DNA from: Ignavibacteria bacterium
Lineage (GTDB): Bacteria; Bacteroidota; Ignavibacteria; Kapaibacteriales; UBA4661
DNA length: 64,000 nucleotides
Reading direction: 5' to 3'
NCBI GenBank assembly: GCA_013298775.1
Contig: JAAFIV010000003.1
Span: 141,460-205,459 of the forward strand
Numbering within the stretch: position 1 is the first letter of the stretch; the number at the start of each line of letters is the position of its first letter. The notes beneath the pieces were generated by a model. That model was not told where the DNA came from, searched no databases, and worked only from the letters and a program-made list of their open reading frames with translations. Below, in pieces: positions 7,259 to 62,130 of the stretch. A program made the position numbers and the translations under genes.

Positions 7259-8293
7259 TCACAACAACGGCACTTTCACGCAAAATACTTCATTCACCTC
7301 CGCAATCACCACAGGACGCTCGTCCAAATAGCTGTACAACTGCACCACGCGCTGCAATCCCTGCCGATTCGACTCCTCGACCATTGTTTTTCGCTGCACA
7401 TTATTTGCTACCGATAAATAGCCATTTCCGTCGAAAATCCTGATATGAAGCGATTTCTGCGCTGAGGCGATATTGTGTTTTACCGCATTTTCAATAAGAA
7501 TTTGCAGCGTAACAGGCGCAATTTTTTTTGTCAATATCTCCTCGTTTACTTCAAAATCTACCTTCAAACCCTCTTGAAACCTAGTCTCCAGCAAATGCAC
7601 ATATCGCTTGACGAAGGTGAGTTCTGTTTCAAGCGAAACAAGTTCATTATTGGCTTGCAGCACGTAGCGATAGACTTTGGAAAGCTGTTGTAAAAAATCA
7701 CTGGCAAGCTGCGGATTCTCAAAAATAAGGCTGTTCAGCGAAGTGAGACTATTGAACAGAAAGTGAGGATTGAACTGGTTTTTGAGGTTGTCGAACTGCA
7801 CTTCGGCGCGTTCTTTTTGGAGGCGTTCATTGCGCAGAAGTTCAGCTTTCCATTTATCAAAAAAATCTTTTCCAAAGAGCGAGAGATTGATAGAAAAAGT
7901 CAATAAAAAACCTGTGAGCGTTGCCGCAACCATGAAGGGTTTGGTGAGCATGGGAAGGCGCAAAACGAGCGGAATATATTCGCCATAAAACCACCAGGAA
8001 ACAACAGCAATACAGGCAAAAAAGACCCACCCAATGAGTACCTGCGCGGCAATTCGGCGTACCACACGCATATCCGATGAAAAGAGGCGAATATCGTAGG
8101 GGAGAAGTTCATTCAATGTATTGTGCAACCACACAAAACCTTCCAACAATGCTGGTCCGAACACAAACGCTGCGCAAAATGAGAAAATATGCAGGTTTAT
8201 GCCCAATTCAGGAAACACATACGCCCGCACCGACGCACCAATGAGGTTCGCGGTAATCACAATCGGGTAGGCTTTTTTGCGATTGATAGTCAT
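7259..8293 (-). CDS. LytS/YehU-family sensor histidine kinase (membrane sensor plus His_kinase/HATPase)
   Basis: Multi-TM N-terminus. A FLFNSLTSLNSLI...LSKVYRYVLQ block (PF06580-type His kinase region) is followed by an ATPase domain. Confidence 0.7.
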   Translation of the reverse strand: MTINRKKAYPIVITANLIGASVRAYVFPELGINLHIFSFCAAFVFGPALLEGFVWLHNTLNELLPYDIRLFSSDMRVVRRIAAQVLIGWVFFACIAVVSWWFYGEYIPLVLRLPMLTKPFMVAATLTGFLLTFSINLSLFGKDFFDKWKAELLRNERLQKERAEVQFDNLKNQFNPHFLFNSLTSLNSLIFENPQLASDFLQQLSKVYRYVLQANNELVSLETELTFVKRYVHLLETRFQEGLKVDFEVNEEILTKKIAPVTLQILIENAVKHNIASAQKSLHIRIFDGNGYLSVANNVQRKTMVEESNRQGLQRVVQLYSYLDERPVVIAEVNEVFCVKVPLL

Positions 8294-9706: not shown

Positions 9707-11026
9707 TTACGGAGATTTTTTTTTCAACGCAAGCAATACTGCGGCACTGACAAGCGTAAGAATACTTGCAACAATCATCACTTCCTGCGCTTCTTCACGG
9801 ATGGAAAAAGGAGAATATTGCCACAACGCAAGATGTTGTGCGATTCCCCACAACGAAAGCACCGACCATACAGCAATAAACGCCAGCAAAAGCTCATCAA
9901 TACTGCGTTGCAAAACATGAGAAATGGAAAATCTGGCTGAAATAATCAGTACGGCAAAACACAGCAACACCGTACCAATACTTGCTCCCAGCACAACACT
10001 CGCAGGAAGAATGGTGAGTGCTACATATGCTGGATAGGCGTACCACGCAGGTCTGTCGGCGGGCGTGTGCAAGGGTGCTTGCGTGAGGTCGGCGGGAAGA
10101 GTTGGCGCGAGGCTTGTTGCGTAGCCCGCCCAGCACACACACACGCACACAAGAATACAAGCAATGATGGTGTGTTCAAGACTTTTGAACGTAACGTATT
10201 GATTGTTTTTTCGCGCTCGTATTGCCCAGACGCAAGCAACGGTCAGGCTTGGGAGTACAATAAAATGCAGCGTCGTCATTTTGAGAAGCGTTGAAGTGCC
10301 GAGTGCGCTTCCGCCGCGCAGTATTCCTGAAAGAGCATTGCCCAGTAGTGGTGCGGATTGCAGCGTGGAAAGCGCAATTTCCAATGCTGCGAACGAGCGC
10401 GTATCGAAGGGCAGAATATAGCCTGTGATGCCGCTTCCCAGCACGCACGCTGCGCCGAGGACAGTGAGCGCGGTCGTTTCTGTGGCGCAGACAAGAGTGT
10501 CTGCGCTACCTCTTTGTATTGGCTTCGAGGCGAGGAAACGCATTGTACACGCGCACAACGCCGCCAGCAACACCGATGCAACAAGGATATTCGCCGCCGC
10601 TTGGTGAATGCCGCGTACAAGCCAGCCATACTCTGCACCGCGCATGATTCCTTGCTCTACCGAGAAATACGCTGCATTCGGCAGTAATACTTGTTTGCTG
10701 CTCAGATGAGTAACGATGCGGCTTGCCGAGCGAAGTGTGTCGAGTGGAAGTATTGGCGCACGTGCAGCAGTGTCGTATTCCACAAAAAGCAGTTCCGATG
10801 CGGTGTATGTGGTTTTTGTTGGTGCGTGGCGGAGCGTTTTTGTTATTTCTAGCATCACCATACTCTGTCCCGACGCGCTTTCGGCGGGACGCGCCGAAGG
10901 CTCATACTGCGTCATCAGCAGTATTCCCGTGAGGCATTGCAACACAAAACTTTGTATGCTGAGAGCAAAGCTGAATCTCGCGCCGCGAGCAATGATGCGT
11001 TGAAGAGTGTGATTGGTCGTATTCAC
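9707..11026 (-). CDS. Cytochrome b (b/b6 family) membrane protein with a GTG start. It carries an in-frame family-3 repeat insertion.
   Basis: LQCLTGILLMTQY...YGWLVRGIHQAAANILV and LLKMTTLHFIVLP match the two heme-ligand His-containing helices of cytochrome b. It is standalone: no Rieske gene is adjacent. Confidence 0.6.
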   Translation of the reverse strand: MNTTNHTLQRIIARGARFSFALSIQSFVLQCLTGILLMTQYEPSARPAESASGQSMVMLEITKTLRHAPTKTTYTASELLFVEYDTAARAPILPLDTLRSASRIVTHLSSKQVLLPNAAYFSVEQGIMRGAEYGWLVRGIHQAAANILVASVLLAALCACTMRFLASKPIQRGSADTLVCATETTALTVLGAACVLGSGITGYILPFDTRSFAALEIALSTLQSAPLLGNALSGILRGGSALGTSTLLKMTTLHFIVLPSLTVACVWAIRARKNNQYVTFKSLEHTIIACILVCVCVCWAGYATSLAPTLPADLTQAPLHTPADRPAWYAYPAYVALTILPASVVLGASIGTVLLCFAVLIISARFSISHVLQRSIDELLLAFIAVWSVLSLWGIAQHLALWQYSPFSIREEAQEVMIVASILTLVSAAVLLALKKKSP

Positions 11027-11130: not shown

Positions 11131-11296
11131 GTAACTGGTCAGGTCTCCCCGTCGGGCGGCTGTTATCACAAGCGCAGTCGCCTTACGGCGGGTTCTTCGG
11201 CGCGTACTCAATAAAAGCGTCCTGTGTACACCCGCCGGACGGCTACTGTATCTGTAATAACAGCCGCCCGACGGGGGGAGTACCTGACCAGTTACG
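11131..11296. repeat. Family-1 element variant with a longer loop and outer inverted repeat GTAACTGGTCAGGT/ACCTGACCAGTTAC
   Basis: CCCGTCGGGCGGCTGTTATCACAAGCGCAG...CTGTAATAACAGCCGCCCGACGGGG is flanked by the outer inverted repeat. Confidence 0.8.
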
Positions 11297-12237: not shown

Positions 12238-12247
12238 ATGTCAAATC

Positions 12248-12360
12248 TTCCCGCCCAAGCGGCTGAGGAGTGCAGGTACGGTGCCGTCCGGCGGGTGATT
12301 CCGTTTGTACAGCACTCGCCGGACGGCTACTGTGCGAGTGATAACAGCCGCCCGACGAGA
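12248..12360. repeat. Family-1 element, orientation B
   Basis: CCGCCCAAGCGGCTGAGGAGTGCAGGTACGGTGCCGTCCGGCGGG ... CTCGCCGGACGGCTACTGTGCGAGTGATAACAGCCGCCCGACGAG. Confidence 0.85.
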
Positions 12361-12425
12361 AAGACCAGCGACCAACTATAAAGCTCAAAAGCCTGATACA
12401 TACACGCTTTGAGCGTAAAAAATGC

Positions 12426-12712: not shown

Positions 12713-15700
12713 ATGAATTCTTCCGAATACTCTCCTTCCGAGCAAATCCCAAGCATCGCCGGAATGCCGCCAAAACAAGGCTTGTACGACCCCGCATTCG
12801 AGCGCGATGCCTGCGGTGTGGGCTTTGTGGCAAATATGAACGGCACTCCGTCGCGGGATATTGTTACCAAAGGCTTACAAATCCTGAAAAACCTGAAGCA
12901 TCGCGGCGCGACGGGCTGCGACCCGCATACAGGCGACGGTGCGGGCATTCTCATCCAGATACCGCATGAATTCTTCGTCCGCGTTTGCCGAGAGCCGCAA
13001 AACCTGATTGATGGCGGCTTCGAGCTTCCAGAGAACGGAAAATACGGCGTTGGAATGATGTTTTTGCCGAGCATCGTTGAAGAGCGAAAACGCTGCGTAA
13101 GCCTCATCACCTCTCGCTTGAAGGCGGAAGGTTTGACCGTGCTTGGTTGGCGGAATCCTCCCGTGAACGACCAAGTTGCGGGCGATGTGGCGCGTGCCTC
13201 GCAGCCTGCTATTCGCCAAGTGTTTGTTTCTGCGCCGCACTTGACGCAGGAACAGCTTGAAATCAAGCTCTACGTGGCGCGGCAGATGATGTCGAAAGAA
13301 ATTGTGCGTTTGGGTTTGGAGCAGGGAAATTATTTCTACGTGCCGAGTTTTTCCACGCGCACCATTTGCTACAAGGGCTTGCTGCAGCCCGAACAGATGG
13401 ATTCCTACTTCATTGACCTGAAAGCAAACGATTTTATTTCCGCGCTCGCCCTTGTGCATCAGCGTTTTAGCACCAATACCTTCCCCACGTGGGGTTTGGC
13501 GCACCCCTTCCGCTATTTGGCGCACAATGGCGAAATCAACACGCTGCGCGGCAACGTAAACTGGATGCGGGCGCGAGAAGCAATGCTGGAATCGCCCTTA
13601 TTTGGTGCGGATATTAAAAAAATTAAACCGATTATCACTGAAAGCGGTTCTGATTCGGCAATTCTCGACAACGCGCTTGAACTCTTGGTTCTGAGCGGTC
13701 GCTCCGTTCCCCACGCGCTGATGATGCTCGTGCCAGAAGCATGGGAAGCAAAAGCCGATATGAGCGAGGAATTACGCGCCTTCTACCAATATCACTCGAC
13801 GCTTTCCGAGCCGTGGGACGGTCCCGCCGCGCTGTCCTTCACCGACGGCACAATTATCGGCACTGCGCTCGACAGAAATGGTCTCCGACCCGCACGGTAT
13901 CTCGTTACGGAGGATGGCATTGTGGCACTGGCTTCGGAAGCGGGCGTGCTGGATTTCCCGCCCGAAACGATTGTCCGCAAAGGGCGCGTCGAACCCGGAA
14001 GCATGATGGTTGCTGACCTCACGGCTGGTCGCATTTTGGAAAATGAGGAAATCAAACGCACCATTGCAACGCGGCAACCATACGCCGAGTATGTAAAATC
14101 GCACGTTATTCGCCTTGAGCATTTGCCAGAAGCCTCATCGGAACTGGCTTCGTTGCCAAATCTTGCTGACAAAGAAACGCTTGTCGAGCAACAACAAGCA
14201 TTCGGTTATTCTGACGAAGACCTGCGTGTCATTTTGCAACCAATGTCGCAAAATGGCGAAGAACCTGTCGGCTCAATGGGAACCGACACGCCGCTTGCGG
14301 TCTTGTCCGAGAAGCCGCAGCTCCTTTCAAATTACTTCAAACAACTTTTCGCGCAAGTAACGAATCCGCCTATTGACCCGCTTCGTGAGCGGTCGGTGAT
14401 GTCGTTGAAAATTTATACAGGACGGCGCGGCAAGTTTTTGAATGAAGAATTTGACCCGCTCCGCTGTGATTTGGAGCTGGATTCACCGATTTTGACCGAC
14501 GACGAATTAGCGAAAATCAAGGCTCTGGGCAGCAATGCCGAATCCCCCCTCAATCAGACCCTCACCCCAACCCTCTCCCACAGGGAGAGGGCTTCAGAAT
14601 CTTCACCCTCGCCCTCTGGGAGAGGGTCGCTCGAAGAGCGGGGTGAGGGAAAGGCGCGAGAAATCACCCACAACATGAGTTCCGCAACGCTTTCCACCTT
14701 GTTTCCCATTGCAAAAGGCGCGGAAGGCTTGGTAAAAGCTCTCACCAGCCTTTGCGAGCAGGCGGAAGCGGTGATTGAAGAAGGACACGCGCTGCTTATC
14801 CTCAGCGATAGAGGCGTAAACAAGACCATGGCTCCCATTCCCGCGCTCTTGGCGGTTTCGGCGGTGCATCATCATCTCATCAAAACGGGCAAGCGGACGC
14901 AAGTGGGCTTGGTGGTGGAATCGGGCGAGCCGCGTGAAGTCATGCACTTCGCGCTGCTGATTGGCTATGGCGCGAGCGCAATCAATCCGTATCTCGCTTT
15001 GGGAACAATCAAGCATTCCTTCGCAGCCGCAAATGCAGTGGCGACGGTGCATGGAGCGGAGTTGTCCGCGCTTGGCAGCATCAAGGCTTTGACCGAAAAT
15101 TACCGCAAAGCCATTGGCAAAGGTTTGCTGAAAATTATGAGCAAAATGGGGATTTCGACGCTCATGTCGTACCGAGGAGCGCAAATTTTCGAGGCAGTTG
15201 GACTCAGTTCGCAACTCATTGACAACTACTTCCCCCGGACCCCGTCTCGCTTGGAGGGCATTGACCTTCGCCACATCGTGCGCGACGTGGAAACCTTCCA
15301 CAAACACGCTTTCCCCGCAAAGCCAGTTCTGAAGGCGCGTTCAGGCGCGTCGCTGCGTCGGTCGGGCTTGTACCAATGGCAGCGCGATGGCGAGTTTCAT
15401 GCCTACAACCCCGCATCAATCCACAAACTTCAGCAAGCAACCGCGCAAAACGATTACGCCGCCTTCAAGGAATACTCTGCACTCGTGAACACGGTGCAAA
15501 AGAAAAACGCGATGCTGCGTGGGTTGTTGGAGTTCAAGAAGGCAGATTCTATCCCGCTTTCGGAGGTGGAACCTGTTGAAGAAATTATGAAACGCTTTGC
15601 AACCGGCGCGATGTCGTTTGGTTCTATCAGCAAAGAAGCGCATGAAACCTTGGCGGAAGCAATGAACGCGATTGGCGGCAAAAGCAACACGGGCGAAGGC

Positions 15701-17506
15701 GGCGAGGACGCAGAACGCTTCGGGACAAATCGCCGCTCGGCTATCAAGCAAGTAGCGTCGGGGCGTTTCGGGGTTACGTCGCATTATTTGGTGAATGCGG
15801 ATGAATTGCAAATCAAGGTGGCGCAAGGCGCGAAGCCAGGTGAAGGCGGACAACTGCCCGGACACAAGGTAGATGCGACGATTGCGCGGGTGCGCCATTC
15901 CGTGCCGGGCGTTACGCTGATTTCGCCGCCGCCGCACCACGACATTTACTCGATTGAAGACCTTGCGCAACTTATCTACGACCTCAAAAATGCGAACAGC
16001 AAAGCCGATATTTCCGTGAAACTCGTCTCGGAAGTAGGCGTGGGCGTAGTAGCGGCGGGCGTTGCGAAGGCTCATGCGGATATGATTTTGATTTCCGGCT
16101 ACGACGGCGGCACGGGCGCGTCGCCGATAAGTTCCACGCGGCACGCGGGTATTCCGTGGGAAATCGGCTTGGCAGAAACCCAGCAAACACTTGTGCTGAA
16201 CGACCTTCGCGGGCGTGTGCGTGTGCAGGTGGATGGTCAGTTAAAAACGGGGCGTGATGTCGTTGTTGCCGCGCTTTTGGGCGCAGAGGAATTTGGCTTC
16301 TCGACCGCGCCGTTAGTAGTTTCGGGCTGTATTTTGATGCGCAAATGCCACTTGAACACGTGTCCTGTCGGCATTGCCACGCAAAAGCCTGAACTCCGCG
16401 CAAAATATACGGGCAAGGCAGAACACATCATCAATTTCTTCCGTTTTATTGCCGAAGAAGTACGCGAATTGATGTCGGAACTCGGCTTCCGCACCATGAA
16501 CGAAATGATTGGTCGCTCAGATGCTCTCAAACCCGCATTAGACCTTGCCGGCAAGGCGGCAACGCTGGATTTATCAGCAATTTTGTACAACCCGGGCGTA
16601 CAATCAAACAAACTCGACCTCGCCCAGACACCGCTTCGTTGCGTTTCTGCACAGGAGCATGGCTTGGAGGACGCACTAGACCACGAGTTGATTGCGCTCT
16701 CTCGTCCCGCGCTCGAATCCAAGCGGTCGGTGTCGTTTGATATTCGTATTCGCAATGTTCACCGCACGGTCGGTACATTGCTTGGAAGCGAGATTTCACG
16801 ACGCTTTGGTGAAGAAGGCTTGCCAGAAAACACCATCAATGCCACGTTCACGGGAACGGCTGGGCAAAGTTTCGGCGCATTCGTCCCGAAGGGCGTAACG
16901 ATGCGGCTTGTGGGCGAAGGAAATGATTATGTTGGCAAAGGTTTGTCGGGCGGAACGATTATTGTTGTGCCAAACCCCGCAGCCCGCTTCAATGCTGAGG
17001 AAAACGTCATTGCGGGCAATACAATTCTCTACGGCGCGACGAGCGGAACGGCGTTCATTCGCGGGCAGGTTGGCGAACGCTTTGCGGTGCGCAATTCTGG
17101 CGCGACGGTCGTCGTAGAGGGCGTTGGCGACCACGCTTGCGAGTACATGACAGGCGGAACGGTGGTGGTGCTTGGAAAAACGGGACACAACTTTGCGGCG
17201 GGCATGAGCGGCGGCGTGGCATTCGTCTATGACCCGCATCGCGCCTTCCCTCTGCGCTGCAATCACGAAATGGTGGATGTTGTGAATGTGTTGGATGCCG
17301 AGCAGCAAGAACGCCTGCACAGCTTGATTTCACGCCACGTTGAGCAGACGGAGAGCGCGATTGGCAAGCGTATTTTGGAGTCGTGGAATACGGCGGTGCA
17401 AGACTTCGCGCTCGTCTTCCCGCACGAGTACCGCAAATACTTGCAGCGCACTCGCCCACAACCCGCACAAACACTGGTAGAATTGGGCAAAGAACTTGCG
17501 GTGTGA
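12713..17506 (+). CDS. gltB: Glutamate synthase large subunit
   Basis: N-terminal CGVGFVA (Ntn amidotransferase Cys), central and FMN domains and a C-terminal GXGXG beta-helix. 1597 aa, including a ~32-aa repeat-derived in-frame insertion at residues ~616-647. Confidence 0.95.
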   Translation: MNSSEYSPSEQIPSIAGMPPKQGLYDPAFERDACGVGFVANMNGTPSRDIVTKGLQILKNLKHRGATGCDPHTGDGAGILIQIPHEFFVRVCREPQNLIDGGFELPENGKYGVGMMFLPSIVEERKRCVSLITSRLKAEGLTVLGWRNPPVNDQVAGDVARASQPAIRQVFVSAPHLTQEQLEIKLYVARQMMSKEIVRLGLEQGNYFYVPSFSTRTICYKGLLQPEQMDSYFIDLKANDFISALALVHQRFSTNTFPTWGLAHPFRYLAHNGEINTLRGNVNWMRAREAMLESPLFGADIKKIKPIITESGSDSAILDNALELLVLSGRSVPHALMMLVPEAWEAKADMSEELRAFYQYHSTLSEPWDGPAALSFTDGTIIGTALDRNGLRPARYLVTEDGIVALASEAGVLDFPPETIVRKGRVEPGSMMVADLTAGRILENEEIKRTIATRQPYAEYVKSHVIRLEHLPEASSELASLPNLADKETLVEQQQAFGYSDEDLRVILQPMSQNGEEPVGSMGTDTPLAVLSEKPQLLSNYFKQLFAQVTNPPIDPLRERSVMSLKIYTGRRGKFLNEEFDPLRCDLELDSPILTDDELAKIKALGSNAESPLNQTLTPTLSHRERASESSPSPSGRGSLEERGEGKAREITHNMSSATLSTLFPIAKGAEGLVKALTSLCEQAEAVIEEGHALLILSDRGVNKTMAPIPALLAVSAVHHHLIKTGKRTQVGLVVESGEPREVMHFALLIGYGASAINPYLALGTIKHSFAAANAVATVHGAELSALGSIKALTENYRKAIGKGLLKIMSKMGISTLMSYRGAQIFEAVGLSSQLIDNYFPRTPSRLEGIDLRHIVRDVETFHKHAFPAKPVLKARSGASLRRSGLYQWQRDGEFHAYNPASIHKLQQATAQNDYAAFKEYSALVNTVQKKNAMLRGLLEFKKADSIPLSEVEPVEEIMKRFATGAMSFGSISKEAHETLAEAMNAIGGKSNTGEGGEDAERFGTNRRSAIKQVASGRFGVTSHYLVNADELQIKVAQGAKPGEGGQLPGHKVDATIARVRHSVPGVTLISPPPHHDIYSIEDLAQLIYDLKNANSKADISVKLVSEVGVGVVAAGVAKAHADMILISGYDGGTGASPISSTRHAGIPWEIGLAETQQTLVLNDLRGRVRVQVDGQLKTGRDVVVAALLGAEEFGFSTAPLVVSGCILMRKCHLNTCPVGIATQKPELRAKYTGKAEHIINFFRFIAEEVRELMSELGFRTMNEMIGRSDALKPALDLAGKAATLDLSAILYNPGVQSNKLDLAQTPLRCVSAQEHGLEDALDHELIALSRPALESKRSVSFDIRIRNVHRTVGTLLGSEISRRFGEEGLPENTINATFTGTAGQSFGAFVPKGVTMRLVGEGNDYVGKGLSGGTIIVVPNPAARFNAEENVIAGNTILYGATSGTAFIRGQVGERFAVRNSGATVVVEGVGDHACEYMTGGTVVVLGKTGHNFAAGMSGGVAFVYDPHRAFPLRCNHEMVDVVNVLDAEQQERLHSLISRHVEQTESAIGKRILESWNTAVQDFALVFPHEYRKYLQRTRPQPAQTLVELGKELAV
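14558..14653. repeat. Family-4 composite palindromic element (CCCTCACCCC...GGGAGAGGG...GGGTGAGGG) inserted in-frame inside gltB
   Basis: Near-identical to the reverse complement of the intergenic copy at 22104-22216. A partial copy lies at 61953-62005. Confidence 0.8.
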
Positions 17507-18189: not shown

Positions 18190-18719
18190 AAACATTTTTT
18201 ACCAATCTTGCCAGTGCTGCTGCGCTTGCAGCCCTCATGTTTGCTTGTGCGCCCACGCCACCAACACCGCCCGCAGACTTTATTGCTGGCGATTCTAACC
18301 TCGTTAATGTTGCTTCGTCGTGGACGCGCATTGCGGGACCGTACATCGGCACGGCTGGACCAGATGGCTCGTTTCTTGGTGCAGCGCACCGCGTCGGCGA
18401 TACAACAGTTACCCGTACCGTGTATTCGCGGAATAATTTTGTCAGCATCAGCAAAGACGCGAGCAGTGGACGTTATCCCGTCGGAACGATGCTTGTGAAA
18501 CTCTTTCGTCGTCGCACAGACAGCACGGTTATTGGCGGCTCGATGATGGTTAAGCGTGGTGGCGACTTTGCTGCGGCAAACGCAACAGGCTGGGAGTGGA
18601 TTAACTTGAACGCGAGCGGGCAGGTTGCAACACGCTTCCGCAGCGATAGTGCTGCTGCTGCGTGCGTGGGCTGCCATCGTACGCGGATGTCGAATGATTA
18701 TTCTTGGTCGTTGAAGTAA
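18186..18719 (+). CDS. Secreted lipoprotein with a C-terminal CxxCH heme-c motif (possibly cytochrome P460/c'-beta-like)
   Basis: Signal peptide with a lipobox-like FAC. The single CVGCH motif sits 20 aa from the C-terminus, as in P460-family proteins. The family assignment is not verified. Confidence 0.35.
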   Translation: MKTFFTNLASAAALAALMFACAPTPPTPPADFIAGDSNLVNVASSWTRIAGPYIGTAGPDGSFLGAAHRVGDTTVTRTVYSRNNFVSISKDASSGRYPVGTMLVKLFRRRTDSTVIGGSMMVKRGGDFAAANATGWEWINLNASGQVATRFRSDSAAAACVGCHRTRMSNDYSWSLK

Positions 18720-22045: not shown

Positions 22046-22103
22046 GTTTGTCGAAGGCTTAAAGATGAAACAAAATTTTTGGTTGCGATAGATATTGGAG
22101 TGT

Positions 22104-22216
22104 TTCCCTCACCCCGCTCTTGCGAGCGACCCTCTCCCAAAGGGCGAGGGTTTTCCAAAGGCTTATTTTCTGAAGCCCTCTCCCTTTGGGAGAGGGTTGG
22201 GTGAGGGAAATTTAGC
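22104..22216. repeat. Family-4 composite palindromic element, intergenic copy
   Basis: TTTCCCTCACCCC...CCCTCTCCCAAAGGGCGAGGG...CCCTCTCCCTTTGGGAGAGGGTTGGGTGAGGGAAA. Confidence 0.8.
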
Positions 22217-52288: not shown

Positions 52289-52393
52289 GCCCCCTTGATA
52301 AAGGGGGAACGGGGGATTTGCTCATGTGAAACGAGTGATTTGAAGCGGTGTTGAACCACAATAATCCCCCGTTCCCCCTTTATCAAGGGGGCG
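52289..52393. repeat. Family-5 inverted pair (GCCCCCTTGATAAAGGGGGAACGGGGGATT ... AATCCCCCGTTCCCCCTTTATCAAGGGGGC). Second copy at 62016-62117.
   Basis: Direct reading at both loci. Confidence 0.8.
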
Positions 52394-60300: not shown

Positions 60301-61963
60301 AGCGTCCGTATTGCGTTCCTGTTGCGAGTTGGTCATAGCTCTGAAAGCGCGTCTGTACTTGCGCTTGCTGAATATCGCCATTGGCGGGAATGCTGATAAT
60401 GACGGCATCGCCATCGTCAAAACGCAGCGCACGAGCAACATCGCCCGTGACAATGAGCGAGCGTCCGTCACGGCTCCATGACACGTTTGTCCAATACTGG
60501 GCGGCAAAAGGAATTTGAATAACTTTCGTTGTGCCAAGTCGCGGATTGACAAGCAGAATGCGGTTTACGAAGCAATTACAATCGCGCAGCAAACTTGGGT
60601 CGTTGTTGTTGCCCGTCATGCCCCAAATTGCCAGAAGATTGTCCGTCGGCGACCACGCCACGTTGCGAGCAAAAGAAACGCCCGGAAATTGTTCGAGATT
60701 ATCGGGCGCGACAGGCGCGAGGTCGTCGCGGGTGAGCGTGAAAATATTTTCCAGCACATTCTGCGGCAAGGTTGGAAGCGGCTGCAAATTCACAATTTCT
60801 ATACCACCGCGAATACAGCTCAGTGCCGCCATTTGCCGATTATTGCTGAAGTGAACGCTCGTGCCAAGGTCGCGGAAAAGGTCGCGCTGGCTTGTCGAAA
60901 TTTGCCCTAAACAGCTAAACTGATTATTCGGTACGCTTTCAATAATGGTGCGGGGTGCAGCAGTGCCAAGTTGCCATTCCGTGATACTGCGCAGCATGGA
61001 AACAGGATTTAAGCCCTGAAACGCCACGCCGCTCGGAGAAACTGCCGTTGCTGGCTCTACCTGCGTTTGCAAGCGATAGAGGAACAATGTGCTGCCATCG
61101 GGTCGCCATGCGGTATTGTATTCGTACAAAATGTTGCTGCCTTCGGTGCGTGGCAGTTGCAGAGCCGCGAGTTCGCCCCACGTGGAAGCATCCCAAACTC
61201 CAATCGTGCGCTCGTCTTTCCACCATGCAAACAAGCGTCCATCGGGTGTCCAGAAGTTTTGCTGTACGCCGAGCATATCCATTCCGTAGGCAATCGAACT
61301 GGAATAGCGAATGTTGTTGAATTGAATCGTGCGCTGGTAGGAGAATTGCCTGAGAACCCCGCCGTTATCGGCGTTGTAGATGGTTACGGCAATCGTGGCA
61401 GTGGAAACAAAGGTGCAATTTTGCGCATTATTCCACGCCGCATTTACGACCGCAACCTGCTTGCCGTCTGGCTTCCAGAAGACAAGCGGCTGCGCATTCA
61501 AAGGAAAATTCTGACAATTTGCAGAAGCATTCGTCGCAGGAGTAAAGCGCAATACCGTGTGCGGAATAAGCACTGGTGCGGTTGTGGTGGTGCCGCCCAT
61601 CGCGCTCGGCACGGTCATTTGTTGCGTAATTCCTTGCGTGGAAATTTTTGCGCCCAATTCCGTGATGCGGAGGCGAAAACGTTGCGTGGGGAAGTTCGGT
61701 AGATTGCGCCAGATATAGCGTCCGCCGCGAGCATTGGCAAGGAAATCCCAACTTGTGCCGTCGTTGATGCTGTACTCAATGCGCACACTGTCGTTTGGCG
61801 AAGTCAGCCCGTCATTCGGCGCATTCGACCAGCGAATATCCACATCGCTGCCGCCAAAGACGGGCGTGTTCTGCGTTGGTTGGAGAATGCGGACTTGCGC
61901 CGGAAGGAGTATTTGTGAGGCTTGGAGGAGGAGAAGAATGGCGAGTAGGTATATTCCCCTCAC
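57314..61963 (-). CDS. Very large secreted protein (~1550 aa) with PD40/WD40-like beta-propeller repeats, Ig-like repeats and a T9SS-type C-terminal domain. The probable GTG start lies inside the family-4 repeat.
   Basis: Signal-like MRGIYLLAILLLLQASQ after the GTG and repeated W(S/R)PDG(S/T) motifs. The 5' ~300 bp of the longer ORF is made of family-4 and family-5 repeats and is unlikely to be coding. Confidence 0.55.
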   Translation of the reverse strand: MRGIYLLAILLLLQASQILLPAQVRILQPTQNTPVFGGSDVDIRWSNAPNDGLTSPNDSVRIEYSINDGTSWDFLANARGGRYIWRNLPNFPTQRFRLRITELGAKISTQGITQQMTVPSAMGGTTTTAPVLIPHTVLRFTPATNASANCQNFPLNAQPLVFWKPDGKQVAVVNAAWNNAQNCTFVSTATIAVTIYNADNGGVLRQFSYQRTIQFNNIRYSSSIAYGMDMLGVQQNFWTPDGRLFAWWKDERTIGVWDASTWGELAALQLPRTEGSNILYEYNTAWRPDGSTLFLYRLQTQVEPATAVSPSGVAFQGLNPVSMLRSITEWQLGTAAPRTIIESVPNNQFSCLGQISTSQRDLFRDLGTSVHFSNNRQMAALSCIRGGIEIVNLQPLPTLPQNVLENIFTLTRDDLAPVAPDNLEQFPGVSFARNVAWSPTDNLLAIWGMTGNNNDPSLLRDCNCFVNRILLVNPRLGTTKVIQIPFAAQYWTNVSWSRDGRSLIVTGDVARALRFDDGDAVIISIPANGDIQQAQVQTRFQSYDQLATGTQYGRWNNPDHLWNPDNTRIAGGNYRRLDVWDAQRGDLLQTIDFPDALDLNNVVAWSPDGTKLISTRRFVRPNFPQSAGNLAMLQDTAAVLFNIPPANVAVSENFSLAAAPILAVTSGSVIAQLLCEEQGVARVLLNNIGAAELRISEATLNIPRVNPNGPVQAGLLSEFSVIRFPQSIAAGRTDTALVAFRSTRFGRFAGEVLFRSNALNSNLVAVQLEGRRDTTGIVFPNPIVDVPDYDPLNFQRSIRITNVGTLPLDFRGVEPLVRGTNARIEGVLPPLLAPGQTGFVLISLTPPVPLRTRVREELRLRDACGRASVISVSIGRSAVLEAPDVVNLGSIVCATSPTIAIPLQNTGNQRIFINGISAVSGDPSEFPLRNLPSDIGPNTTATIDFGFTPFSAGLKTFTIELITNSATGARKTITINARKDSIGFLLPLAPILVSGEQENMPIRQTFRIVNTGTLPLRWQTPIALGDKFTITSIEPQEILPNGGSAEARLEFRGAAAGFQFDTTVTLRQALCDASASARVSVRVLQVPRLAVDFPSLNLTCESTTLATVRLRNDGSGDTRLERVTLTGANAGEFRVESFPSLIPRGQSDVLRLRFTPSSQGTKQAALNILSNAFENTSNIIIPARKDSSGLQILERVLDFGAVGVQQEVVRSFSIQNRGTLVESLNFPTEANSPFTIVSVQPNPLPPNSTGQVRVRFFSGMGGNFLRRLTLRDACAREIPLEWVARAAGGILTLQSSIEAAPAREVEVPIFLRNRSGVSVGTRIGLELTVSNASLLEAAESMPPASNSVQNGIRTLSYTTAIASDNEAEPILRLKLRGLLGNDSVATLRISSLVVGGVSVPFVNNINPTSQVIMRGLNRTGGTRLFFGTAPTLAITQVFPNPTSNKLTVSIDAESAENPALTPPVAVSVKLINLLGNEHALWRGALHLASGSIASNATQTNFHSTHTLELSTEGVPAGAYFLEMQYLCASVSSDGSMQPCRVVRRVMVVR

Positions 61964-62130
61964 CCCAACCCCTCTCCCACGCGAAGCGCGAGGCGAGGGG
62001 CTATGCGCACCAGCAAAGGTCGAATTCGCCCCCTTGATAAAGGGGGAACGGGGGATTTGAGGTTTGAAGCCTCTTGTGGCAAATCCCCCACTCGCTACGC
62101 TCGTCGCCCCCTTTATCAAGGGGGCTGTCG
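61953..62130. repeat. Composite repeat cluster: partial family-4 copy plus the family-5 inverted pair
   Basis: CCCCTCACCCCAACCCCTCTCCCACGCGAAGCGCGAGGCGAGGGG ... GCCCCCTTGATAAAGGGGGAACGGGGGATT ... CCCCCTTTATCAAGGGGGC. Confidence 0.8.

Follow-up and report, generated by a model that had tools for sequence, protein, structure and literature searches.

A palindromic repeat composed of BoxC/PIT/TMECO-like triplex motifs within the gltB reading frame of a Kapabacteria-like genome

The glutamate synthase gene gltB of an Ignavibacteria bacterium contains a short palindromic repeat that is read in frame and that is absent from the gltB genes of its relatives. The gene lies in the window that we analyzed, a stretch of 64,000 nucleotides (nt) of contig JAAFIV010000003.1 (assembly GCA_013298775.1), and a second copy of the repeat lies in an intergenic region of the same window. 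The gene and the insertion are placed as follows (positions are those of the window).

12713 to 17506, plus strand: gltB open reading frame, glutamate synthase large subunit, uninterrupted, 1,597 amino acids (from the list of open reading frames and the translation)
14543 to 14662, plus strand: net insertion relative to the closest orthologue, 120 nt or 40 codons, encoding SPLNQTLTPTLSHRERASESSPSPSGRGSLEERGEGKARE (from protein and DNA alignments with P0001/L001, L002, and L003)

A continuous gltB frame of 1,597 amino acids had been predicted from the sequence, and it was borne out by the open reading frames, their translation, and the Pfam domains: GATase_2, Glu_syn_central, Glu_synthase, and GXGXG are all present at full length. 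The protein also aligned with the solved GltB chains 7mfm, 6s6s, and 1ea0 with an E value of 0 (phmmer). Its closest homologue, P0001, comes from the Candidatus Kapaibacterium metagenome-assembled genome (MAG) GCA_004292595; it is 95% identical, 1,557 amino acids long, and present on two independent assemblies (L001 and L002). A 40-codon gap at alignment columns 609 to 649 is the sole indel between the window gltB and P0001/L001. At this site the window reads NAE[SPLNQTLTPTLSHRERASESSPSPSGRGSLEERGEGKARE]ITHNM and P0001 reads NAE-LSRGM, and the placement of the insertion is ambiguous by one codon, with 14540 to 14659 fitting equally well. The low-complexity peptide noticed in the original prediction, LTPTLSHRERASESSPSPSGRGSLEERGEGK, is the true in-frame translation of the segment. 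In a blastn comparison with L001, synteny was interrupted at 14542/14674 and ended at 18719.

The original prediction also held that the segment at 14558 to 14653 is an inserted repeat that adds about 32 residues to the enzyme. The insertion stood up, but its size did not, the net gain over the nearest orthologue being 40 residues (120 nt). Protein and DNA alignments showed the segment to be absent from P0001, from P0002 (90% identical), and from P0003 to P0019. Two conserved motifs bracket the site, and both could be located in 110 orthologues; the distance from one motif to the other was 92 residues in 94 of these orthologues and no more than 113 in the others, compared with 138 in the window. 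No repeat-like peptide was found at the site in any of these 110, so that of the approximately 110 orthologues checked for the segment as native sequence, none carries it.

The polarity of the change is that of a gain. For the reverse to hold, the segment would have to be ancestral in GltB and deleted in the relatives, with the intergenic copies derived from the gltB segment, and loci of the triplex motif that makes up the repeat (see below) are indeed reported to be deletion-prone in E. coli (PMC4666352). We regard this as extremely improbable, given that the segment is missing from about 110 orthologues, including those 95%, 90%, and 84% identical, that 94 share the short loop length, and that the motif is a dispersed repeat across many bacterial phyla. 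On the explanation that we consider very probable, the repeat came into gltB once this lineage had separated from its nearest sequenced relative, the GCA_004292595 lineage.

Alignments with structures in the PDB break at the insert (phmmer): query residues 604 to 670 correspond to 16 residues in 7mfm (B. subtilis GltA), and query residues 602 to 656 correspond to 7 residues in 6s6s (Azospirillum GltS; also 1ea0). We modeled GltB residues 470 to 870 as a segment with AlphaFold2 from 31 homologues (mean predicted local distance difference test score [pLDDT], 69; predicted template modeling score [pTM], 0.74). The insert, segment residues 141 to 183 (protein residues 610 to 652), had a pLDDT below 50 and no secondary structure, and it was placed between the helix TDDELAKIKA (segment residues 127 to 134) and the strand ATLSTLF (188 to 192) of the central domain. 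Both the breaks in the alignments with solved structures and the coil of pLDDT below 50 agree with the earlier suggestion that a short linker of the central domain normally occupies the site. The same loop, which comprises window residues 605 to 655, is also longer in two more remote Kapabacteria-like orthologues, P0008 and P0009, each with unrelated residues of its own (21 and 7, respectively, from the flanking-motif spacing measure). GltB therefore has a natural indel hot spot here. The loop is presumably solvent exposed in the assembled enzyme, and the insert is most likely translated as a disordered, hydrophilic loop of 40 residues rich in Pro, Ser, Gly, Glu, and Arg.

Over the 1,557 aligned codons, gltB differs from L001 with a synonymous divergence (dS) of 0.315 and a nonsynonymous divergence (dN) of 0.015 (dN/dS, 0.046), and the gene is under strong purifying selection. 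These values average the whole divergence from L001 and would be compatible with a very recent loss of function, in which case gltB would be a young pseudogene, inactivated by the insertion and still open by chance. That is highly improbable for a frame intact over 4.8 kb, with four full-length domains and no other indel, in which the insert sits in a loop that tolerates other insertions. The claims that the reading frame was maintained and that the enzyme tolerates the repeat are upheld by the same observations: the frame is intact, the insertion is the only indel, and with a dN/dS of 0.046 the gene looks functional.

The repeat itself is a composite of two units, which we call A and B. The segment at 14558 to 14653 (plus strand) aligns with the reverse complement of 22104 to 22216, and the two arms are identical except for a few point differences; the center of the gltB copy is 11 nt shorter, and there is one further 1-nt indel. 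This alignment confirmed the prediction that the 96-bp segment is the reverse complement of the intergenic sequence with a shortened center. The parts of the element in gltB are as follows.

14559 to 14649, plus strand: core composite palindromic element, 91 nt, from CCCTCACCCC to GGGGTGAGGG (from the four-copy alignment and fold energy)
14559 to 14591, minus strand: unit A, CCCTCTCCC-TGT-GGGAGAGGG-TTG-GGGTGAGGG, an exact fit to the published TMECO/BoxC/PIT pattern
14592 to 14605, plus strand: central spacer CTTCAGAATCTTCA, 11 to 13 nt shorter than in the three other copies and variable in sequence among copies
14606 to 14649, plus strand: unit B, CCCTCGCCC-TCT-GGGAGAGGG, a 14-nt loop 2, and GGGTGAGGG
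14628 to 14640, plus strand: mini-hairpin CGCTC-GAA-GAGCG inside loop 2 of unit B

The conserved core thus spans 91 nt (about 30 codons), compared with 120 nt for the net insertion. The ends of the core, CCCTCACCCC and GGGGTGAGGG, are complementary 10-nt terminal inverted repeats found in all four known copies. Unit A has its stem-loop-stem CCCTCTCCC-TGT-GGGAGAGGG at 14571 to 14591 (minus strand), and its third strand mirrors the purine stem, so that the sequence would be compatible with a purine-motif intrastrand triplex. The stems of unit B, CCCTCGCCC-TCT-GGGAGAGGG, occupy 14606 to 14626 and have a G.A mismatch, as in the "mm" type of E. coli. The two units point in opposite directions and carry their third strands on the outside, where these pair with each other, giving the layout CCCTCACCC ... 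GGGTGAGGG with two internal hairpins. The hairpin CCCTCTCCC-NNN-GGGAGAGGG (at most 3 mismatches) occurs four times in the 64-kb window, two per copy, and shuffled sequences gave an expectation of 0.00. The predicted fold of a 111-nt stretch was branched, with an energy of −64.2 kcal/mol (z = −5.8). The loop of the mini-hairpin is GCAA in the intergenic window copy, and similar mini-hairpins with GAA or GNRA-type loops were seen in other phyla (L028, L052, L093, L097, L103, and L136). An Rfam search of 14300 to 14900 at a permissive threshold returned only sub-threshold look-alikes of eukaryotic microRNAs and small nucleolar RNAs and no described family that fits. An intein, an intron, and translational bypass were considered and rejected: nothing interrupts the frame, and a group I or II intron would be much larger than the element.

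Four copies of the composite are known, the one in gltB and the following three.

22106 to 22207 of the window, minus strand: second copy, intergenic, in the opposite orientation; 22103 to 22210 with its TTT/AAA extensions
L126, a JGI contig: third copy, intergenic, reached through a spurious 55-amino-acid open reading frame that was the single match of a protein search with the 40-amino-acid insert peptide
L124, an ENA metagenome contig, 7943 to 8046: fourth copy, the single locus returned by one metagenome scan with a strict, lineage-specific DNA pattern

In-frame coding insertions account for two of the four. The L124 copy lies in frame within a 936-amino-acid open frame with Reg_prop propeller, Y_Y_Y, and GAF domains, a sensor gene for which a close homologue (P0123/L127) provides the empty site. 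The homologue reads RVDGAV-STTATLPSTAEKLEFQYTA and L124 reads RVDGVLL[PSPNPLPEGEGLQEKGVSENPCPLGEGRSQSGVRGDTG]TMVTLPSTAEKLEFQYTA, a net gain of 38 codons. The element has the same orientation in gltB and in the sensor gene, but the reading frames differ, and therefore there is no conserved peptide; three of the six frames of the gltB copy are free of stops. When the gltB and L124 junctions were compared with the empty sites in L001 and L127, only a trivial GAA direct repeat was seen. Resemblances between targets (GCGCG beside two ends; GAATCCCC versus GAAATCACCC) were weak and were rejected as unconvincing.

The L124 copy also bears on whether the gltB insertion is real. Short dispersed repeats are a classic source of assembly errors, the exact window GltB protein comes from a single NCBI contig, and a repeat copy might have been spliced into gltB by misassembly of the MAG or by a sequencing error. 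We consider an artifact very unlikely. Point changes, the 11-nt central deletion, and the 1-nt indel distinguish the gltB copy from the other window copy, and because the sequences differ the gltB copy is not a duplicated read-through of the copy at 22106 to 22207. The unique gltB sequence is in frame on both sides of the repeat, the net added length is divisible by three, and no stop codon intervenes. In L124, an independent assembly, the family is in frame in a second gene whose empty site is documented.

Each half of the composite is a version of the published form CCCTCNCCC-loop-GGGAGAGGG-NNN-GGGTGAGGG. The pattern of this intrastrand triplex motif has been given as CCCTCNCCC-N3-6-GGGNGAGGG-N3-GGGNGAGGG (Holder et al. 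2015, PMC4666352). E. coli K-12 has 23 copies, "always located intergenically," and 3,610 copies have been counted in 262 proteobacterial genomes; under the name TMECO the motif was reported only from proteobacteria, with no known function or association with mobile elements, and was linked to local genomic instability (PMC4666352). HPG1 and HPG2 of E. coli, described as an intergenic G-quadruplex-hairpin-duplex switch, are the same sequences (Kaplan et al. 2016, PMC5100583), and the G-quadruplex and triplex potential of the G-rich arm of the E. coli motif has been shown in vitro (PMC4666352, PMC5100583). Both units of the gltB element have the 9-nt C-rich stem, the 3- to 6-nt loop, and the complementary G-rich stem, with one mismatch allowed. 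A 3-nt second loop followed by an GGGNGAGGG-type strand is present in unit A (TTG and GGGTGAGGG), and unit B, with its 14-nt loop, does not match the strict pattern. An intergenic location, which describes the E. coli copies and is not part of the sequence definition, holds for the copy at 22106 to 22207 and does not hold for the copy in gltB.

We scanned one genome per species for GGGAGAGGG-N(1-20)-GGGTGAGGG and considered the 157 occurrences among the matches listed, to which the counts that follow refer. They spanned almost all phyla, with sources including Pseudomonas, Enterobacteriaceae, Acinetobacter, cyanobacteria, Chloroflexota, Planctomycetota, Verrucomicrobiota, and Acidobacteriota, and no further copies from the window's lineage were among them. 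The CCCTCTCCC stem was just upstream in nearly all of these matches, even though it was not part of the search pattern, and the gap between the G-rich blocks was 3 nt in 91 of the 157. No triplex motif was found in the gltB neighborhoods of the relatives L001 to L003. Judged by its sequence, the repeat combines units of a known motif found across phyla, the BoxC/PIT/TMECO triplex motif, and is not private to one lineage. It shares with the known repeats the inverted pairs of units, the lack of a known transposase, the dispersed distribution, and the variability between close relatives. It differs from them in that the third strands of E. coli pairs are innermost, whereas those of the window element are outermost and pair with each other; in that the second loop is 3 nt in E. 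coli, compared with 14 nt, including a mini-hairpin, in unit B; and in that the E. coli motif is intergenic and proteobacterial, whereas the window copy lies inside coding sequence of a Kapabacteria-like genome.

Other arrangements of triplex-type units were also seen. Pseudomonas crudilactis (L022, about 400 to 800) has three tandem repeats of about 151 nt with one TMECO unit each. A second triplex-type family in the window, CCCCC-TTGATAAA-GGGGG-AAC-GGGGG, forms two inverted pairs with the third strands innermost (52289 to 52391 and 62028 to 62124), and its unit at 62083 to 62124 has a long second loop, recalling the architecture of the gltB element. A secreted protein of 1,650 amino acids with a Por_Secre_tail domain has, just upstream of its signal peptide, a solitary BoxC-type unit whose first loop is 13 nt long (61957 to 62001, minus strand). 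Translation most plausibly starts at the GTG in the third strand GGGGTGAGGGG of this unit, and GGGAGAGGGG lies where a Shine-Dalgarno sequence would be expected.

Among the 157 occurrences, 31 had a reading frame that continued without a stop for 80 codons or more to either side of the motif. Ten of these 31 were checked against Pfam, and 8 were genuine genes, with domains flanking the motif or with the motif within a domain.

L052, Devosia MAG: isoleucyl-tRNA synthetase (IleRS); about 24 extra residues in the motif region relative to solved structures
L014: Mfd; palindromic pair, about 48 extra residues between D2 and D3 relative to solved structures
L109: HsdR; a gap relative to solved structures comparable to those of IleRS and Mfd
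L011, GH94 phosphorylase; L023, ABC transporter linker; L031, IcmF-like mutase linker: identified by Pfam domains only
L005, 2 to 2161, plus strand, and L046, 1777 to 4515, minus strand, two betaproteobacterial MAGs: methionyl-tRNA synthetase (MetRS), with a whole motif-DUF559-motif unit in frame

The unit in MetRS sits between the anticodon-binding domain and the C-terminal tRNA_bind domain. Residence of the triplex motif in frame within housekeeping genes is therefore recurrent across phyla, and our literature search found no publication on in-frame triplex motifs in housekeeping genes. In-frame insertion of repeats is itself already known from the Rickettsia palindromic elements (RPEs) and from intragenic ERIC, RUP, and NEMIS (PMC2759123 and PMC10969869). 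What is new here is a previously intergenic motif family inside a core enzyme, in a new phylum and with a new architecture. The motif, hitherto treated as an intergenic curiosity of enterobacteria and cyanobacteria of unknown function and means of spread, is confined neither to intergenic DNA nor to proteobacteria. It is a source of protein loop insertions comparable to the RPEs, but in many phyla (GltB as well as IleRS, MetRS, and Mfd). For annotation, this means that low-complexity inserts rich in Pro, Ser, Gly, Glu, and Arg in conserved bacterial proteins can be recognized as repeat derived.

We think it very likely that a small, nonautonomous palindromic repeat of two inverted triplex units inserted into gltB and is carried there as a tolerated passenger. 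The third-strand segments CCCTCACCCC ... GGGGTGAGGG would form the outer inverted ends of this repeat. The insertion would have survived because its net added length is a multiple of three, because the frame in which it is read is one of the three stop-free frames, and because it landed in a helix-strand loop already tolerant of length variation. The insert would be transcribed and most likely translated as a disordered loop without a functional domain, and it is presumably neutral. As for the mechanism, we favor, with low confidence, mobilization in trans by an enzyme encoded elsewhere; the sole candidate found is the DUF559 (Vsr-fold) endonuclease family, whose genes are flanked by such motifs in other bacteria.

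The insert may instead have a function, its DNA or mRNA structure pausing transcription or translation at a domain boundary or its loop having a role in the enzyme complex. Such a function, which is not exclusive of the passenger view, is unlikely. It would fit the predicted structure of −64 kcal/mol, the G-quadruplex and triplex potential of the E. coli motif in vitro (PMC4666352, PMC5100583), and the strong purifying selection on the gene. It fits less well with the absence of the insert from all relatives, its predicted disorder, and the second in-frame case, which uses another frame and conserves no peptide; nor did the E. coli studies see a promoter, terminator, or polymerase-blocking effect in vivo.

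Several observations weigh against insertion of a mobile passenger repeat as set out above. None of the four copies shows a target-site duplication or a target consensus, and about 29 nt of the net insertion flank the conserved core and are unexplained. A tblastn search found no DUF559 gene in the 64-kb window, which has no mobilizing candidate. Covariation analysis of the four copies was uninformative on selection for structure, the stems being invariant. To these is added the record of the exact protein from one contig only, noted above.

The element can be compared with several repeat systems. The RPEs are dispersed palindromes of about 100 to 150 nt found in frame in unrelated genes, including housekeeping genes (Ogata et al. 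2000, 2002, as cited in PMC10969869). The window family resembles them in its in-frame insertion at fold-compatible sites in unrelated genes, here gltB and the L124 sensor gene, and in having further copies that are intergenic. By the same source, RPEs are translated as an extra hydrophilic segment, as the window insert would be. RPEs also have a conserved peptide in one frame, whereas the two in-frame copies of the window family are in different frames and encode different peptides; and the same text confines RPEs to Rickettsia, whereas the building block of the window element spans many phyla. The element is homologous to BoxC/TMECO, and no sequence relationship to the RPEs was noted, a comparison made without alignment to RPE sequences. 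Intragenic ERIC/RU-1-3, RUP, and NEMIS (Delihas 2007, PMC2759123) and MITEs (miniature transposable elements with inverted repeats; PMC10969869) are likewise small and nonautonomous, with inverted ends, strong structure, and occasional in-frame fusion to open reading frames. MITEs have a target-site duplication and a recognizable parent insertion sequence (IS), neither of which was found for the gltB element; it does have terminal inverted repeats, as MITEs do.

Repetitive extragenic palindromic (REP) sequences and REPINs are short, GC-rich palindromes that occur singly or in inverted pairs. They are nonautonomous and are proposed to be mobilized in trans by a single-copy gene for an IS200-like REP-associated tyrosine transposase (RAYT) flanked by the repeats. 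In contrast to the window family, REPs are species specific and essentially extragenic, and the gene flanked by triplex motifs in other bacteria encodes a DUF559 Vsr-fold endonuclease, not a Y1 transposase.

This association with DUF559 was seen in several settings. In the two MetRS cases (L005 and L046), the motifs bracket an inserted DUF559 domain (PF04480, Vsr-fold endonuclease). DUF559 genes adjoin motifs in Acinetobacter portensis (L042) and in L097, and in E. coli, TMECO no. 9 lies 168 nt downstream of ycjD. The loci on which the association rests also include L125 and L141, and it was seen in several MAGs as well.

For an independent test, we searched PLSDB with DUF559 by tblastn, choosing loci without reference to the motif. 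This gave 13 plasmid or chromid loci from eight orders (L128 to L140) of cyanobacteria, alpha-, beta-, and gammaproteobacteria, and Deinococcus. The detector, a generic one, required a pyrimidine stem joined by a loop to its purine complement, then a second loop of 1 to 20 nt and a mirror third strand. In 12 of the 13 loci, a triplex-type motif lay no more than 168 nt from the DUF559 match, usually at 11 to 64 nt, and 8 loci had motifs on both sides. The stem sequence depended on the lineage (CCCTCTCCC, CCCCTCCC, C5-6, or CTCCCCCC), while the architecture was kept. A 50-kb Deinococcus region that served as a control held four detector sites, one of them apparently spurious, and of the other three, two directly flank the DUF559 gene. 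The gene is bracketed by a minus-unit/plus-unit pair of the same polarity as the window element in L128, L129, and L137, and a single inverted motif pair brackets it in Synechocystis B12 and in Deinococcus. On the Synechocystis sp. B12 plasmids L128 (CP101712.1) and L129 (CP101716.1), the cassette appears to split DUF1156 methyltransferase and BREX pglX (methyltransferase) genes, each of which is annotated as separate open reading frames.

A homing endonuclease is known within the Vsr/DUF559 clan. One reading, which we put forward tentatively and at somewhat less than even chances, is that BoxC, PIT, and triplex repeats are the ends and MITE-like derivatives of a widespread DUF559 cassette, the gltB element being such a cassette minus its gene. 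On the same tentative footing, elements of this kind would be able to enter essential genes in frame in many phyla. Alternatively, DUF559 genes may preferentially land at triplex motifs. Our literature search found no publication linking the triplex motif to DUF559, and to our knowledge the BoxC/PIT repeats have gone unexplained since the 1990s. The association, if true, would offer the first testable candidate for what moves BoxC/triplex elements.

Compared with L001, the window has also gained two other palindromic repeats less than 4 kb from gltB, and repeats were therefore spreading in this lineage. One, at about 12238 to 12374, just upstream of gltB, is a GC-rich palindromic repeat of the GCCGTCCGGCGGGT family that is absent from the syntenic L001 site. 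The other, at 11131 to 11296, is a true MITE of a different family, with terminal inverted repeats TAACTGGTCAGG and CCTGACCAGTTA and a target-site duplication of 7 to 8 bp (GAATTTG). It is inserted, relative to L001, after codon 9 of a cytochrome b-like gene, which in the window also shifts frame near 11026.

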